A stretch of DNA of 46,369 bases from the IMG/VR virus record IMGVR_UViG_3300003322_000100, positions 1 to 46,369 of that record. One strand, written 5' to 3'. The notes beneath the pieces were generated by a model. That model was not told the DNA's origin. It saw only the letters and a program-made list of their open reading frames with translations, and did no database searches. The position numbers and the translations under genes were made by a program. This document shows positions 3,750 to 15,429 of the stretch, in pieces. The DNA comes from a virus. The stretch's first letter is position 1, and every line of letters starts with the position of its first letter.

Positions 3750-5324
3750 CTAGTTCGTCGGGTACTGAACATCAATGCTGGTGACGGCCCGCCCGTCCGC
3801 AGCGAGAACACGATACCGCACCCCGTCGTAAGGATGATCTTCGCCGTCCGTATCAACATCTTCAATATTCTTTTCGGAGCGTTGAAGCAACGGAATTGTT
3901 TCGATGGCAGCGACACAATGCGCCATGAAATAGATTGCCTTTCCTTCTTTCCGTTTAGCGTTAACTAGTCTATCTCTAAATAGCTGAAGTCCGACAACAC
4001 GACTTCCGGCGCTTTTATCCGAAGGTTCCCAATATACGCCTTTATCCTCCATTTTCTTTTTAATGGTATCTGATGCCGCATCTTTGACATTGCCGATTTC
4101 ATTATCTGCCGCACCGCCGGCAATTCGACTATTAACCCATTTATTCCGAATTAAGCTTTCTTCAATGGCAATAATACCATCGGCTATATCTTCCGATCCT
4201 AGCTTAATTCCTTTATTAGTACCAATTTCCTTTGTACCATACCATTCATGGATAAGAATAAGTGTACCCGGCGGCGGACAGAATTTCTCTACTGTACCGT
4301 CTGGATGAATAATTGTCGCTTCCTCGCCGTTTGCTTCGGCAAACCAACCAATCCAGAATGGATGCATTGATCCCCAATCCATTACCCTATCAACCCACCA
4401 TCCCTTGGGTATTACAAATCTCGGCTTAATGTGTACTTTAGAGTCCCATACGTCGGAAATAGCGCCGCCTGCGACAATATCCCATGATCCCTCAAACCAT
4501 GATGCCCGCTTGGCTTCATCGTCAATTTCCTTAAGCTGGGCAATATATTTCGGATCAAGTCGAGTATTCTCCCGCCAATGCGAGAATATAGCCACCTGTG
4601 TCCGTTCAACCGTTATTTCTTCCTGTGTCTTCGGATCGGTAACTTGAATAGCTTTACGATAGATTACGCCATTTGGCGCCGGTAAAATGAACCGGCGTTT
4701 ATTCCAGGCAATGCCGGGGCCGTAGCTATTAGTCGTCAATACCACTTCAAGCGGTATCGGCCCGGTCTTTATGCGTTCACCATATTCATCAAATAATGCA
4801 TTTTCTTCTTCAAGATAAGATGACCGATTTGTCGACAAAATAGCGTCAAGAAAGGCAGATGTCGCATATTTGGTGATTTCGTTAATACCTATCCAAGGGT
4901 ACTCATGACCATGATAGGCAAGATATGCTTTCTCGTCTGCGGCCGATCGGAATAACAGTTCTTCGCCGTCCGGCCAAACCCATTTCAATTGGGAAGTAGA
5001 CGACAAGAATTTAGCGCCATCCTCGAATAGAGGAAAAAGGCGATTTGCGCGCGTAATGATATCGTCAAGGTTCTTATATTCGCGGTCAAATAGAATACCT
5101 CGCCAGAAAGGGCCAAATCCTTTTCCGACGTTCTTATGATAATGCATTAACTGAGTTTCCGTTTTAGCGGAACCTCTAGTGCCGTGAAGAAAGAGAATAT
5201 CGACAGGCGCCGTTAAAGCGAATTCCTGGGAACTATCCGGAAACGGTGCCCATACTACCTCATTTTCCTCCGGCTGCAAGTCGCGCCTGTTGGGCGGCGG
5301 CCTTCGCTTCCCAATTGTCGCCAT
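3750..5324 (-). CDS. terL: Terminase large subunit
   Basis: 524 aa. Walker A-like HGTRGSAKT near the N-terminus and an acidic nuclease-like C-terminal half. Position upstream of the portal gene. Confidence 0.85.
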   Translation of the reverse strand: MATIGKRRPPPNRRDLQPEENEVVWAPFPDSSQEFALTAPVDILFLHGTRGSAKTETQLMHYHKNVGKGFGPFWRGILFDREYKNLDDIITRANRLFPLFEDGAKFLSSTSQLKWVWPDGEELLFRSAADEKAYLAYHGHEYPWIGINEITKYATSAFLDAILSTNRSSYLEEENALFDEYGERIKTGPIPLEVVLTTNSYGPGIAWNKRRFILPAPNGVIYRKAIQVTDPKTQEEITVERTQVAIFSHWRENTRLDPKYIAQLKEIDDEAKRASWFEGSWDIVAGGAISDVWDSKVHIKPRFVIPKGWWVDRVMDWGSMHPFWIGWFAEANGEEATIIHPDGTVEKFCPPPGTLILIHEWYGTKEIGTNKGIKLGSEDIADGIIAIEESLIRNKWVNSRIAGGAADNEIGNVKDAASDTIKKKMEDKGVYWEPSDKSAGSRVVGLQLFRDRLVNAKRKEGKAIYFMAHCVAAIETIPLLQRSEKNIEDVDTDGEDHPYDGVRYRVLAADGRAVTSIDVQYPTN

Positions 5325-5733
5325 GATCCTTGATGACCATTACTTTATTCCGCTTCGCCTGCGGAGCGTTGACGTTGACATTGACAGCACCTTTGCCGCC
5401 CGGCCCGGCCGCTAGGCCGAGCAATTCGGAGACAAGCCGATATCCTTTGATCCGATCTTCTGTCGCCCTGGCAACATCCGCCAGATGGGCGACCTTATGA
5501 ATGATCTGTTCCTTTGTCGGGAGGAAATGCTCCGCCCCGTATTCCTCGATAAACTCTTTCTTCTTTTCGACCACATACGGATGATGCATCCACATTTGCA
5601 CCGCCCATATCGTCCAAGTAGTATCCCCATTAAACGCGCGCATCCCCGCAGACATTCCGTCATGCGGGGTGAAACAGAGTTGATAAGCGAACTCGTCCAC
5701 CAACTCTTGTAAGGTTTCAGGCGCTATATCCAT
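5260..5733 (-). CDS. Terminase small subunit candidate
   Basis: 157 aa ORF immediately upstream of terL and overlapping it by 65 nt. Call rests on position only. Confidence 0.4.
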   Translation of the reverse strand: MDIAPETLQELVDEFAYQLCFTPHDGMSAGMRAFNGDTTWTIWAVQMWMHHPYVVEKKKEFIEEYGAEHFLPTKEQIIHKVAHLADVARATEDRIKGYRLVSELLGLAAGPGGKGAVNVNVNAPQAKRNKVMVIKDHGDNWEAKAAAQQARLAAGGK

Positions 5734-5766
5734 GGTCCCTACAAGATATAGCGCCTGAATTTCTTG

Positions 5767-6453
5767 TCAATGCGGCTTCGGAATACCGGCCGTGGCGTTG
5801 TCGGCCGCCTCCGTAAGGTCCGCAAGCTTCGCGCTCGCATCGTTCTCGGCCGCCTGGATATCGGTATCCGTCGCCGCCGGGTTGTCGGCCGCCATGCGGA
5901 AAAGCGTCACCGCCTGTTTCGCCAGCATCAGAAGGGACGCCAGCCGGGCCGCTACCGTCTGGTTTGAACAGACGATGACCAGCTTTCCCGCATCCGTCCC
6001 GCAAGCCGGCTGTACCGCATAGAGGTTGACCAGCCCCGAGGCGACCGTAAGCCCTACCACCATGACGCTAGCACTGCGCTGCGCCGCCGTCTGCTGCCCA
6101 TTGGAGGCGCATCCGCCTAGCAGCATCAGCATGACGACGCAGGACATCCCCACGGCTGCACAGGTGGCCAGCGGATGCGCCTTGGGCGTGTTACGCGGCA
6201 GGTAGATTGCGACCCATCCGGCGGCATAGAAGACGACGGCCGTAATCACGGCGATGATAGCGCCGGACAGTTCGTCGCCGGTCGGAAGTTCGATCATTCC
6301 GGTCAGACGGCCGATGATATAGGTCAGAATAGTGATGATGGCCGGAACCAGCGCGCCGATATTCGCCTTGGTGGCTGTCATCGGCGTATTGGCGATGATA
6401 CGTTCTTTCACCGACTTATTGATAAGCGGCGAGTCGGGATCAATCATGGTCAT
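5767..6453 (-). CDS. Multi-pass membrane protein, holin candidate (last gene of lysis cassette)
   Basis: 228 aa with 3-4 hydrophobic helices (IGALVPAIITILTYIIG, GAIIAVITAVVFYAAGWVAIYL, VGMSCVVMLMLLGG, VMVVGLTVASGLVNLYAV) and a hydrophilic C-terminal tail. ATGA overlap with the o-spanin gene. Confidence 0.4.
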   Translation of the reverse strand: MTMIDPDSPLINKSVKERIIANTPMTATKANIGALVPAIITILTYIIGRLTGMIELPTGDELSGAIIAVITAVVFYAAGWVAIYLPRNTPKAHPLATCAAVGMSCVVMLMLLGGCASNGQQTAAQRSASVMVVGLTVASGLVNLYAVQPACGTDAGKLVIVCSNQTVAARLASLLMLAKQAVTLFRMAADNPAATDTDIQAAENDASAKLADLTEAADNATAGIPKPH

Positions 6454-7224: not shown

Positions 7225-7719
7225 TTACTGAACGCCGAAAACAGCATCCATCGCTTTGGAATAGTTCGGCGTCCAGCGGGACCGATGCGGCTTACCCGGC
7301 CGCCATGTCTGGAGGTAGTATGCCCATGCCGCCTTGATATTGCCGATCGGCGGAAGCGGTCGAGGATCGGACCACAGCAGAAGACGGGCGAAAGCGCCTG
7401 CCAACAGATCATCCCCGGCCAGGGCGTTATACACGCTATCCGAGGTTGCCGCGATATCCCGTTGAACACAGACAGAAGCGGCAAATGCGGCTGTCTGACT
7501 ATGCGTCAAAACACCCTTGACACCGCCGCCTTTCTCGAATTGCCACAATCCGCGCGCCGGGCCGCCGATTTGCGTCCTATGCTCGAAATTGGCTTCCTGT
7601 CCGCAAATGGCGAGCATCAGCAGCCTAGCGGACGCAGAGTCCATTCGAGCCGGCAGAAGTCCGAGAGAAGGGACGATAACGTCCGATAATACGGATGCGG
7701 GTGTCGTGGCGCCGGTCAT
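7225..7719 (-). CDS. Endolysin, lytic transglycosylase (SLT-like)
   Basis: Start moved to ATG 7719 (MTGATTPAS...). Motif CGQEANFEH...GGPARGLWQFE resembles the SLT catalytic Glu and GLMQ signature. First gene of the lysis cassette. Confidence 0.65.
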   Translation of the reverse strand: MTGATTPASVLSDVIVPSLGLLPARMDSASARLLMLAICGQEANFEHRTQIGGPARGLWQFEKGGGVKGVLTHSQTAAFAASVCVQRDIAATSDSVYNALAGDDLLAGAFARLLLWSDPRPLPPIGNIKAAWAYYLQTWRPGKPHRSRWTPNYSKAMDAVFGVQ

Positions 7720-7757
7720 GAGACGGCTTTCCCATAGCTGGTGGACTATGGGAGGGG

Positions 7758-7786
7758 AGCATACCAGCGATAGCCGGATAGGCAAA
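7758..7786 (-). promoter_or_regulatory. Candidate extended -10 promoter for the late block (TTTGCC-17 nt-TGgTATGCT)
   Basis: Read on the minus strand immediately after the terminator T-run, about 35 nt upstream of the endolysin ATG. The -35 element is weak. Confidence 0.3.
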
Positions 7787-7830
7787 GAAAAACCCCGCCT
7801 CTCCGTGCCAGGGGCGGAGAAGCGGGGTTT
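7783..7830 (-). terminator. Rho-independent terminator ending the early leftward transcripts
   Basis: Minus-strand AAACCCCGCTTCTCCG-loop-CGGAGAGGCGGGGTTTTTCTTTG. 12 bp of GC-rich stem with one mismatch, followed by a T-run. Confidence 0.75.
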
Positions 7831-8000
7831 CCCGAGGCGCCAGGGGCGTACCCGAGGCTGCCGTCTACGCTGTCCCTCGGAGACACCCAACCCAAGGCGG
7901 CAGCGATTGAATGAGGGGCCGGGAGGCGGTGGGGATACCTCCCGGCCGACCGACAGTCCCGAAGGCACCGCCGGTTGTCACGGGTGAAGTGACGGCAGCA

Positions 8001-8029
8001 GAATTACCCTACTGCCGCCCTGCCGTCAA
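8001..8029 (-). promoter_or_regulatory. Candidate promoter TTGACG-17 nt-TAATTC at the start of the non-coding leader
   Basis: The -35 hexamer embeds the TGA stop of gene 8026..8808, as at the early promoters 12669-12674 and 15424-15429. The -10 element is poor. Confidence 0.3.
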
Positions 8030-8808
8030 GCGGTCGTCTGACCGGCCGAATTGGCGGCGACCCGATAGACGCCCACACCCTGGACGCCCGCCCACTTGTC
8101 GCCGAAACCGGCCGCCTTGCCGTCCACGAACTTCCGGCAGGCGAAGAACTTCGGATCATTCGGCGTGTTCTTCTTGCTCCGATCCGTCGCCGTGCTGGCG
8201 ATGGCCGAAACCGACTTCATCAGCTTGGCGAGCGTGTTCTCGCCCGTGACCGGGACGAAGATCGCGGCGCCGAGCGGCATCTGGTCCAGCGGCAGATTGG
8301 AACGCTTGCCGCGTCCGCCGCCCGCCGCAGCCGGCGGGGTCAGGCCCATGACGAAATCGAAGCCGCCGGGCGGGACCACCGCGACCGGTTCCCGCGTCTG
8401 CGGGGCCGGCGCCGGCTGTGGCGCCGCCGGGGCGGAAGCGACGGGAGCGGGAGCCGGAGCGGGCACAGGGGCCGGGACGGGAGCCGGCGCCGCCGGAACC
8501 GGGGCGGGGGCGGGCGCCTGCATGGCGGCGAGCGTCGCGGTGCCGAGGTCGGTCAGGATGGCCGGAAAATTGCCGGAGGCATCCGGCGTCGCGAAGTTCA
8601 CGTCCACATAGCCGGCGAGCGCGTCCGCCACGTCCTTGCCGATCATCGCATACTGGCCAGCGGCATTGACGCCCTGGATATGGACCAGCCACTTGCCGCC
8701 ATTCTCGTCCAGCGGCGCCGGGGTCGGAGCGGGAGCGGCCGGGGTTTCGGCCGGGGTCGTGGTCGTCACGGTCTGATTTCCCCTCTTGCTGTTGGAGGCT
8801 TTCGCCAT
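8026..8808 (-). CDS. Hypothetical two-domain protein with a central Pro/Ala linker (orphan, GC-rich)
   Basis: 260 aa ORF with ATG start and AAAGGA 9 nt upstream. PAPAPVPAAPAPVPAPVPAPAPAPV tract at about 8398-8520. Followed by a 190-nt non-coding stretch and a strong terminator. Confidence 0.75.
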   Translation of the reverse strand: MAKASNSKRGNQTVTTTTPAETPAAPAPTPAPLDENGGKWLVHIQGVNAAGQYAMIGKDVADALAGYVDVNFATPDASGNFPAILTDLGTATLAAMQAPAPAPVPAAPAPVPAPVPAPAPAPVASAPAAPQPAPAPQTREPVAVVPPGGFDFVMGLTPPAAAGGGRGKRSNLPLDQMPLGAAIFVPVTGENTLAKLMKSVSAIASTATDRSKKNTPNDPKFFACRKFVDGKAAGFGDKWAGVQGVGVYRVAANSAGQTTA

Positions 8809-8851
8809 TGTCTGATGTCCTTTATCTGGAATAAACGCGGTTGACGATTGG

Positions 8852-8880
8852 AAGGTATGACGCCTAATTCAGCGTGTCAA
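8852..8880 (-). promoter_or_regulatory. Candidate promoter TTGACA-17 nt-TACCTT upstream of gene 8026..8808
   Basis: Perfect -35 and a weak -10 (T1, A2, T6 kept). Lies at the 3' end of gene 8864..9274. Confidence 0.3.
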
Positions 8881-9274
8881 CCTTCTTTTTGCGGGTTGTC
8901 CGCTTTTTCTTCATAGCCGCTTTCGCGGCGAGCGAACGACGGAGCGAAAGCCGCTGCCAATCCAGAATGGGCAGGACGCGCGGCGACCACCCCATAGCGG
9001 CAAGCGTCATGCCGGCTGCCCATTGCGCATTGCGGCGCGGCATATCGGCCAGGATATGAGAACGCATTTCCCCAGGCGTCATCATCCATGTGGCGCCGAG
9101 ACTGACCATTTTGTCGCGGAAAGTATATTTCTTCGGCGGATTGGTTCGAAGGTCATAAGCGAAATCGATTTTTTCGAAGATATCGCTCATTTTCGTCGGC
9201 CCCATGCTGTATTTGCTGATGAAATCCACCGCCCTTTGTACGTCAAGCGGAAGGTCAGATAGTTTACCGCTCAT
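8864..9274 (-). CDS. Hypothetical protein with basic C-terminus
   Basis: 136 aa ORF. ATGA overlap with the upstream gene. K/R-rich tail KKKRTTRKKK. Confidence 0.6.
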   Translation of the reverse strand: MSGKLSDLPLDVQRAVDFISKYSMGPTKMSDIFEKIDFAYDLRTNPPKKYTFRDKMVSLGATWMMTPGEMRSHILADMPRRNAQWAAGMTLAAMGWSPRVLPILDWQRLSLRRSLAAKAAMKKKRTTRKKKVDTLN

Positions 9275-10725: not shown

Positions 10726-11314
10726 ACGACGTAACAGCGTCCGCCGCCTCTATCCAGTTATAAACTAATTTTACAGAATATCCGGCGTTTGTCAGATAAT
10801 CCGCCCAATCGACTTGTTCATCAGAACGACCACCGTTCTTTCGTGTTCGATACATTTCCTTCTTAAATTCCAGATACAGACCGCAATAAGCAATATGACC
10901 ACTTGCTTTCCACCCTCTGCGAGGAAGGAATACATCCGGCACGCCCGTCTTAACGCCTTCCGCCCGAAGCTGGCCGGCTGTCACCTTGTCGCGCTGCCCA
11001 CCGTTGGGGATCGCGTGCAGCCGCGTCAGGACAGGCACCGGGAACGGGATAAACCCGAAGCCGTGCGATCCCGCCGGCTGGCCGTGCTTGGCGATATAGT
11101 CGGCCACAGCCCGGTAGCTGCCTTCATGGGCAGCGGCGGCATATCCGAACCTCGCCGCGAAATTCGCCCAACAGAAAAAGGCCGCTTGGTGGGAATGCTC
11201 GGTTTCCCCCGCAAGCGACCATGGCGTGTAAATGTGCGGTGTCTTCTTCGGCCGCTCTTTCCGCTTATTAGCCGGATCAAGCGACGGATGAAAGGGTGTC
11301 TTATTGGAGTCCAT
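10706..11314 (-). CDS. VRR-NUC-like nuclease
   Basis: GVPDVFLP...GLYLEFKKE...SDEQVDWADYLTNAGYSV resembles the D..ExK..Q..W core of VRR-NUC. Start placed at ATG 11314, preceded by AGGAAGGA. Confidence 0.6.
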   Translation of the reverse strand: MDSNKTPFHPSLDPANKRKERPKKTPHIYTPWSLAGETEHSHQAAFFCWANFAARFGYAAAAHEGSYRAVADYIAKHGQPAGSHGFGFIPFPVPVLTRLHAIPNGGQRDKVTAGQLRAEGVKTGVPDVFLPRRGWKASGHIAYCGLYLEFKKEMYRTRKNGGRSDEQVDWADYLTNAGYSVKLVYNWIEAADAVTSYVNSVA

Positions 11315-13429: not shown

Positions 13430-13458
13430 ATATTAACCCGCCTTGTCCGGTTTGTCAA
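13430..13458 (-). promoter_or_regulatory. Early promoter TTGACA-17 nt-TAATAT
   Basis: Intergenic. The -10 lies in the loop of an 8-bp inverted repeat CAAGGCGG/CCGCCTTG (13422-13445), a possible operator. Confidence 0.65.
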
Positions 13459-15400: not shown

Positions 15401-15429
15401 TATATACGCCGTCCTTTCCGTCCTGTCAA
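15401..15429 (-). promoter_or_regulatory. Early promoter TTGACA-17 nt-TATATA (continues AGGAACATC)
   Basis: Intergenic. The -35 element embeds the TGA stop of gene 15426..15620. Confidence 0.75.

Follow-up and report, generated by a model that had tools for sequence, protein, structure and literature searches.

Antitermination by RNA is known from phage HK022, in which put is a cis-acting antiterminator RNA with conserved two-stem structures just after the promoter. In phage lambda, the ~194-nt 6S RNA made from PR′ ends at a terminator that is overcome by Q together with NusA (10.1101/2024.10.31.621285; PMC7547250). This 6S RNA binds Hfq (10.1101/2024.10.31.621285), and StxS is likewise a short terminated RNA of a phage late region that acts as a small RNA (sRNA; PMC7547250). 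Among mobile elements, Tn916 carries an insulating terminator that prevents premature expression (PMC11658703). The locus described here is a 306-nt gap between two genes on the minus strand of a 46,369-nt stretch of viral DNA (positions 1–46,369 of IMG/VR record IMGVR_UViG_3300003322_000100), and this whole stretch is termed the window. As described in an earlier note on this DNA, the gap runs from 8025 to 7720, between the TGA stop (8028–8026) of the gene 8808..8026 and the ATG at 7719 of an endolysin-family gene. The same note had taken the gap for a lambda PR′-6S-tR′ unit, in which the late genes are switched on by antitermination.

The gap is probably the boundary at which early transcription ends and late transcription starts, and would be made up of an RNA-cargo slot, an insulating terminator and an independent late promoter near 7751. 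Its place at the early/late boundary, also proposed in the earlier note, follows from the gene order on either side, with early-type genes and promoters upstream and the genes for an endolysin, TerS and TerL downstream. What was observed is that the elements exist, how stably they fold and where they are or are not conserved; from this we infer promoter firing and the ends of the RNAs. The cargo slot (~8025–7831) would be transcribed by read-through from the DUF7303 gene, to which a weak early-type promoter, TTGACG-17-TAATTC, perhaps adds; the terminator at 7830–7784 would then end early transcription and insulate the late genes. Late transcription would start near 7751 from a sigma-70-type extended -10 promoter, TTGCCT-16-TGgTATGCT, and the late mRNA would open at or in CCCATAG-N8-CTATGGG, a palindrome that half-covers the Shine-Dalgarno (SD)-like sequence GGGAA. 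This palindrome could stabilise the mRNA, limit translation of the endolysin or, as a DNA operator, set the timing of late expression. The elements, in the direction of transcription, are:

8026..8808, minus strand: DUF7303-like gene, the last gene of the leftward early/middle operon; 260 aa with a Pro/Ala-rich linker
8024..8029, minus strand: TTGACG, a -35-like hexamer that overlaps the TGA stop (8028–8026)
8001..8006, minus strand: TAATTC, the proposed -10, 17 nt after TTGACG; weak, its last position not being T
7994..8016, minus strand: hairpin 1, with arms GGCAGUAGG (8016–8008) and UCUGCUGCC (8002–7994) and the loop GUAAU
7831..7993, minus strand: cargo, lineage-specific, GC-rich and non-coding, ~160 nt; the whole slot is 66% GC
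7784..7830, minus strand: predicted intrinsic (Rho-independent) terminator with a 13–16-bp stem, a 9-nt loop and the tail UUUUUCUUU
7758..7785, minus strand: candidate late promoter, with TTGCCT (7785–7780), a 16-nt spacer, TG (7766–7765) and TATGCT (7763–7758); predicted transcription start near 7751
7731..7752, minus strand: palindrome or 5′ untranslated region (5′-UTR) hairpin, CCCATAG-N8-CTATGGG, starting at the predicted transcript start
7225..7719, minus strand: endolysin-family gene, the first late gene; 164 aa, phrog_3108 match with E 5e-43

The 310-nt stretch 8029–7720, that is, the gap with the overlapping stop, has a minimum free energy of −169 kcal/mol against −131 ± 6 kcal/mol for shuffled sequences (z = −6.1). 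Seven lineages were compared, namely the window (with L156 and L157), L154, L161, L158/L159, L160, L162 and L163, and the useful contigs came from a large protein collection:

Window lineage: L156 and L157, from root metagenomes, ~99% identical in DNA
Group A: L154, with a DUF7303 protein that is 53% identical
Group A: L161, with an L154-type endolysin; no more than 103 nt upstream are available
Group B: L158/L159, L160, L162 and L163, with endolysins ~60% identical; L158 and L162 also carry a DUF7303 gene

Identity between the window and L154 is 70% at the 3′ end of the DUF7303 gene, 43% in the cargo, which makes the cargo unalignable, 72% over the 64 nt from the T-run of the terminator to the ATG, and 66% at the 5′ end of the endolysin gene. 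This profile indicates that selection acts after the terminator and not on the hairpins of the leader. In the conserved block, the -35 of the candidate promoter overlaps the T-run of the terminator, and the TGgTATGCT named in the earlier note was found at 7766–7758. The counterparts are TTGCGC-17-TGgTACGCT in L154 and TTGCAA-16-TGgTATGCT in L161, with spacers that are unrelated between lineages. Across group A (window, L154 and L161), TTGC and TGgTAyGCT are kept while the 16–17-nt spacer is free, which is the pattern of an extended -10 promoter. A TAnnnT hexamer lies 31–38 nt ahead of the start codon in all seven lineages; in group B it reads TAGACT, TAACAT or TACCCT, is preceded by GTG and stands 31–34 nt before the start codon. 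The earlier note had carried an independent extended -10 promoter at 7758–7766 as a competing possibility, and it is this reading that the comparison favours. A sigma-54 promoter in the block was rejected by reading, because the GG/GC spacing does not fit.

The palindrome starts five bases past the extended -10 and is followed by AAnnCCGTCTC and the ATG, its 3′ arm overlapping the SD-like GGGAA of the endolysin gene. Its arms are identical in the window, L154 and L161, its loops differ, and the motif is unique in the window. As a hairpin it has a z of −4.2 in the window and of −2.9 to −4.2 across group A.

The strong terminator with which the earlier note had closed the gap was borne out, being strong and kept in relatives with compensatory change; judged from its sequence, 7830–7784 is a real intrinsic terminator. 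Its arms (7830–7815 and 7805–7790) are 16 nt each and complementary at 15 of the 16 positions, the T-rich tail TTTTTCTTT lies at 7792–7784, and the element alone folds with −30.7 kcal/mol (z = −5.8). In a scan of both strands it came out as the strongest hairpin with a T-run of the whole window, and no other strong one on the minus strand is intergenic; the runner-up, at 11175–11229, lies inside a coding open reading frame (ORF) and was set aside. A stock terminator scan missed 7830–7784 because its loop limit is 8 nt. A hairpin with a T-run is present at the homologous place in all seven lineages (window, L154, L161, L158, L160, L162 and L163), with stems that differ and with a compensatory change in six of 12 pairs. 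The z values are −4.0 to −5.8 in the six complete copies and −1.8 in L161, where the copy is cut by the contig end. Neither the folds nor the repeat finder gave an alternative pairing that competes with the terminator stem, and an attenuator or riboswitch-like element was rejected on this ground.

At the start of the slot, the promoter TTGACG-17 nt-TAATTC with the stop codon in its -35, as put forward in the earlier note, is present at its coordinates but does not stand as a consensus promoter, since the consensus promoter scan does not report it. The TTGACG agrees with the -35 and the 17-nt spacing of the seven near-consensus early promoters of this phage, and TTGAC(A/G) is found at the same place in the window, L154, L158 and L162. 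In the window, L154 and L162 this motif contains the DUF7303 stop, and in L158 it lies 4 nt past a TAA stop. Note, however, that TTGAC alone occurs ~130 times in the window. The -10 counterpart is TAATCC in L156 and L157, TAACAC in L154 and TATAGG in L158, and there is none in L162. The seven early promoters themselves (minus strand; 16295, 15429, 15070, 13700, 13458, 12674 and 11850) each stand before a small early gene and read TTGAC(A/G)-17-TATATA, TATATT, TAATAT or TATAAA; those at 15429 and 15070 are followed by AGGAACATC.

The proposed -10 occupies the loop and 3′ arm of hairpin 1, which has nine pairs, two of them G.U (z −3.5), and for which an alternative outer stem, UGACGGCAG/CUGCCGUCA (8028–8020/7998–7990), can be drawn. 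The window differs from L156 and L157 by only three substitutions in 361 nt, and two of these (8002 and 7999) fall in the 3′ arm of hairpin 1, where they turn both G.U pairs into Watson-Crick pairs in L156/L157 (z −6.0). Hairpins of a sequence unrelated to that of the window are present at the slot start in L154 (GGCGGAGAC/GUCUCCGCC), L158 (GGACAACCCUA/UAGGGUUGUCC) and L162 (GAGGGAUAACC/GGUUGUCCCUC), with z of −2.8 to −6.3; position and pairing are kept and the sequence changes. A transcript starting at ~7994 would lose the 5′ arm, and a hairpin-1 RNA, if functional, must therefore originate upstream. Hairpin 1 does not exclude a promoter, because the strong early promoter at 13458 has the same design, with its TAATAT in the loop of a 10–12-bp hairpin (GGACAAGGCGGg-ttaatat-CCGCCTTGTC).

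The cargo contains hairpins at 7992–7976, 7976–7949, 7947–7917 (10-bp stem) and 7888–7844, as found by folding and the repeat finder. Among the structures listed in the earlier note, the 10-bp stem (7917–7926/7938–7947) is perfect, the CCGAGG/CCTCGG pair (7852–7857/7875–7880) belongs to a 14-nt arm pair, and the 10-nt direct repeat CGCCCCTGGC (minus strand) was recovered at 7848–7839 and 7816–7807. The slot RNA of the window is predicted to fold as a multi-branch domain with the terminator hairpin and U-tail (z = −5.1). ARAGORN found no tRNA gene in the window, and Rfam 15 gave no match at the gathering threshold anywhere in it; the best sub-threshold matches in 7650–8100 reached ~20 bits against cut-offs of 50–55 and covered the terminator-shaped part. 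A tRNA-like element or a known RNA family in the slot was rejected on these results. The slot measures ~195 nt in the window, 124 nt in L154 and 1.1–1.7 kb in L158, L160, L162 and L163, and the cargo has no similarity to the slots of the latter four, which are RNA islands homologous to window 8025–7831:

L158:1632–3000: RNA island
L160:1–1107: RNA island
L162:1341–3000: RNA island
L163:1–716: RNA island

These group-B slots hold one to eight tRNA genes (Pro, Ser, Gln, Leu, Lys, Glu, Thr, Met and Arg) and, behind strong promoters (TTGACA-17-TATACA, TATAGT or TACATA), a conserved RNA of ~130 nt (GGGGC...GCCCCAUGGUUU; L158:2483–2606, L160:319–425 and L162:2107–2207). RNAalifold gives this RNA 36 pairs, four of them compensatory, from only three sequences. 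Another block of ~200 nt is conserved at L160:473–717, L162:2379–2622 and L163:30–262, and no element of the group-B islands matched an Rfam family at threshold. At L158:2732–2792, with the same sequence in L162 near 2318–2380, there is a sub-threshold match to YrlA (RF02553; 31.5 bits against 69, E = 1.5e-4), and this YrlA-like match beside tRNA genes may be a diverged phage Y-RNA-like element. A second hairpin of the group-B slots (L158:1715–1745 and L162:1409–1447) has the conserved loop UUUGGCGGCUUUC and a covarying stem, GGAACGGCAGG/CCUGCCGUUCC versus GGGACAGGUAGG/CCUGCCUGUCCC. It could be that the junction is a hot-swappable slot for non-coding RNA under one conserved terminator, loaded differently by each lineage (tRNA arrays, the Y-RNA-like element, unclassified structured RNAs), and that the ~200-nt RNA of the window is a new functional phage sRNA, a proposal that we consider unlikely as it stands.

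Several observations weigh against a boundary with its own late promoter. The candidate promoter has only 8/12 hexamer matches, a score at which the stock consensus scan leaves it unlisted. The group-A form occurs in only three lineages; in group B the TG is one position off canonical, closer to the -10, the -35 is poor and the 5′-UTR hairpin is not significant. The identity of the palindrome arms means that there is no covariation within group A. No timing control was found for what would be a near-constitutive sigma-70 promoter before lysis genes. A promoter at the slot start, where TTGAC is conserved in four lineages and a hexamer beginning with TA lies 16–17 nt away in three, may after all be real. 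In addition, read-through expression does occur in the wider endolysin-family world, to judge by the layout of the unrelated phages L010, L019 and L029: the terminator there (~60 nt upstream of position 4001) abuts the endolysin SD and leaves no space for a promoter, so that the endolysin must be expressed by read-through.

A lambda PR′-like unit would use the promoter at 8029–8001, P(8029), and give a ~205-nt RNA stopping at 7788, with a protein or a put-like leader RNA letting RNA polymerase read through. The layout does parallel that of lambda, with a promoter-like site, a strongly structured leader of ~200 nt and a terminator ahead of the lysis genes, which terminase and structural genes follow. 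The leader is short and ends at an intrinsic terminator ~205 nt past the putative start of P(8029), and the TTGAC at the slot start is kept in four lineages and matches the early -35 and 17-nt spacing of the phage. Such a unit, with the late antitermination that the earlier note had attached to it, is nevertheless very unlikely: the leader is not kept, its hairpins being unconserved and kilobase tRNA/RNA arrays taking their place in relatives; the -10 is weak (TAATTC/TAATCC, without an equivalent in L162); hairpin 1, conserved by compensatory change, would be cut by a start near 7994; nothing was seen to pair in competition with the terminator stem; and a conserved promoter-like block follows the terminator. 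No antiterminator of the Q/N family was found in the DUF7303-like protein or the other early proteins scanned (PHROGs, Pfam and NCBIfam), a negative that covers sequence families only, as the AlphaFold model of the DUF7303-like protein (two-sequence alignment) had a pLDDT of 37 and was unusable. Alternatively, the post-terminator block could be a 5′-UTR for translation control of a read-through transcript, with a leaky or regulated terminator and upstream promoters driving the late genes. The conserved block reaches the ATG and overlaps the SD-like GGGAA, the promoter hexamers are only 8/12, and in other phages with this endolysin family the SD comes directly after a terminator. This explanation is still quite unlikely, in view of conservation that is promoter-like (TTGC and TGgTAyGCT kept, spacer free) and of a terminator that is very strong (−30.7 kcal/mol, 9-nt U-rich tail) and has no competing structure.

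Compatible with the late promoter of the favoured boundary is the possibility that the slot is a free-standing phage sRNA gene, its ~200-nt RNA arising from P(8029) or from 3′-end processing of the DUF7303 mRNA and having a trans-acting role. The slots of relatives hold RNA genes with strong promoters and tRNAs, TTGAC is conserved at the slot start, a terminator hairpin with a U-tail is the usual 3′ end of an sRNA, the fold has z = −5.1, and short terminated RNAs of phage late regions (lambda 6S and StxS) are known as sRNAs. Against this, P(8029) is a weak promoter, stable folding is to be expected of GC-rich sequence in any case, the best Rfam match is 20 bits against a cut-off of 50, and a passive 3′-UTR or what is left of a lost RNA array would account for the cargo equally well. 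Homologues are found only in contigs that are 99% identical, and covariation of the slot RNA can therefore not be measured; an sRNA gene is thus possible, if doubtful. How the palindrome acts is a sub-question of the boundary reading: instead of working as an RNA hairpin, it could be a DNA operator centred near +11 of the late promoter, bound by an early phage protein that times late transcription. Three lineages share its arms at 100% identity, their flanking proteins being only ~55–60% identical, and the loop varies, which points to sequence-specific conservation and not merely to pairing. The predicted start lies inside the 5′ arm and would shorten any RNA stem, and the position is as in classical repressor operators; the lacO1 operator is centred at +11. 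An operator is all the same somewhat unlikely, as a spacing of 15 bp between the half-site centres puts them on opposite faces of the DNA for a simple dimer, the motif has no second copy in the window and is lacking in group B, and no DNA-binding regulator was identified.

The gap was also inspected for coding sequence. The earlier note had stated that it contains no minus-strand ATG, which is incorrect: ATGs are present at 7762–7760 and 7735–7733, of which the former opens an out-of-frame ORF of 45 codons and is absent in L154 (TACGCT). The reading frame of the endolysin is open upstream as far as a GTG at 7968. Conserved coding across the gap was rejected, because the same frame, extended to this GTG, carries a stop in L154.

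Searches beyond the seven lineages added little. DNA similarity of 7600–8150 was sought in 50,697 phage records with no match. The leader was shared by none of the endolysin relatives (70 loci, ≤60% identity) or TerL relatives (15 loci, ≤52% identity) in IMG/VR, and the 28 closest endolysin loci differ in their context upstream. The endolysin relatives P0020 and P0027 (L164 and L165) have no slot, the endolysin there lying within a cluster of small genes. Searches of IMG/VR with the DUF7303 protein or its C-terminal alignment and of genome_contigs with the DUF7303 alignment gave no match, nothing scored in a protein search with the C-terminal alignment, and no match to DUF7303 was found among cultured phages, solved structures or the papers searched; exact look-ups of two window proteins found neither on record. 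The pattern GGCCGGGAGG..CCTCCCGGCC had 68 matches, all of them generic GC hairpins and one with weak extended leader similarity, and these were discarded. The conserved 5′-UTR pattern matched nothing in IMG/VR or genome_contigs, and its lone match in metagenome_contigs, inside AT-rich coding sequence, was put down to chance.

Upstream of the gap, the minus strand carries a run of small genes from 16.3 to 11.8 kb behind the seven near-consensus promoters, with a primase-helicase upstream of this run and further genes without assigned function toward the gap. The 260-aa protein of 8808–8026 has a weak Pfam match to DUF7303 (E 5.5e-6, just under the cut-off), and its homologues, P0002 and the genes in L158 and L162, are in the same place before the slot. 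A promoter-like TTGACA-17-TACCTT is present at 8880–8852, just upstream of the DUF7303 gene. GC content is 68% at 8001–9000 and 66% in the slot, against ~45–58% for most of the contig, and the markedly GC-rich DUF7303 gene and gap may be a separately acquired module. The plus strand from 19.4 to 28.7 kb is the replication module, and no integrase was detected in the window, hence no sign of a temperate lifestyle.

Downstream, lysis and terminase genes follow the gap, in agreement with the earlier note. Several cultured phages, for example Achromobacter phage Mano and Burkholderia phage AH2, have homologues of the endolysin that carry the annotation endolysin or lysozyme. The endolysin gene is followed by three small membrane/lipoprotein-like genes and then by TerS and TerL, and co-oriented ORFs run on past these, across the contig ends, down to 29057. 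Among the late-side ORFs, TerS and TerL alone were annotated here, and the structural role of the remainder is an assumption of the earlier note. A perfect 15-bp inverted repeat, TTCAGGCGCTATATC ... GATATAGCGCCTGAA, at 5729–5775 (minus strand) extends across the start codon of TerS (ATG at 5733); RNAfold gives 16 pairs and −25.9 kcal/mol, and a TTGACA at 5770 lies just upstream. This repeat could serve in translation control of TerS or be a packaging-related site.

If the boundary reading is true, an uncharacterised phage lineage found in root metagenomes has here a module boundary of the textbook kind, which helps to annotate transcription units in such genomes and advises caution where lambda-style antitermination is read from nothing more than layout. 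The boundary as such is ordinary, and the variable RNA slot with its unclassified RNAs is the part worth a further look. The junction is a defined locus that can be compared between phages to study the acquisition and exchange of non-coding RNA cargo, and the 200-nt RNA of the window, together with the unclassified RNAs of its relatives, are candidate new phage RNAs.

When set against the described systems, the gap resembles the lambda Q-PR′-6S-tR′ region in lying between the last early gene and the lysis/terminase genes and in having a promoter-like site, a structured stretch of ~200 nt and a strong terminator. Unlike lambda, no Q-family gene was found upstream of the slot, the adjacent gene being DUF7303-like; the promoter upstream is a weak one that lies buried within a conserved hairpin; relatives have tRNA/RNA arrays in place of the leader, which is itself unconserved; the terminator is followed by a conserved promoter-like block, where lambda has none; and no integrase was detected. 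A lambda-type unit is not supported by these sequences, as two of its features fail, namely a Q gene upstream and no promoter after the terminator. As in HK022 put, stable stem-loops stand after a promoter-like site and before a terminator, but the window hairpins are unconserved in the nearest relative and absent in the others, only hairpin 1 being kept in position, and nothing indicates that they act on RNA polymerase. The leader is not a put-type RNA, because its structure is not conserved. The group-B relatives are like phage islands of tRNA and non-coding RNA, in that the homologous slot in L158, L160, L162 and L163 holds tRNAs and RNAs and is closed by the same terminator, whereas the window slot is without tRNA, without an Rfam family and without similarity to the RNAs of its relatives. 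The junction is also like the insulating terminators of mobile elements, with the strong terminator of one unit followed at once by the promoter of the next, the -35 of which overlaps the T-run; unlike that of the Tn916 terminator, the insulation proposed here is deduced from sequence and conservation.

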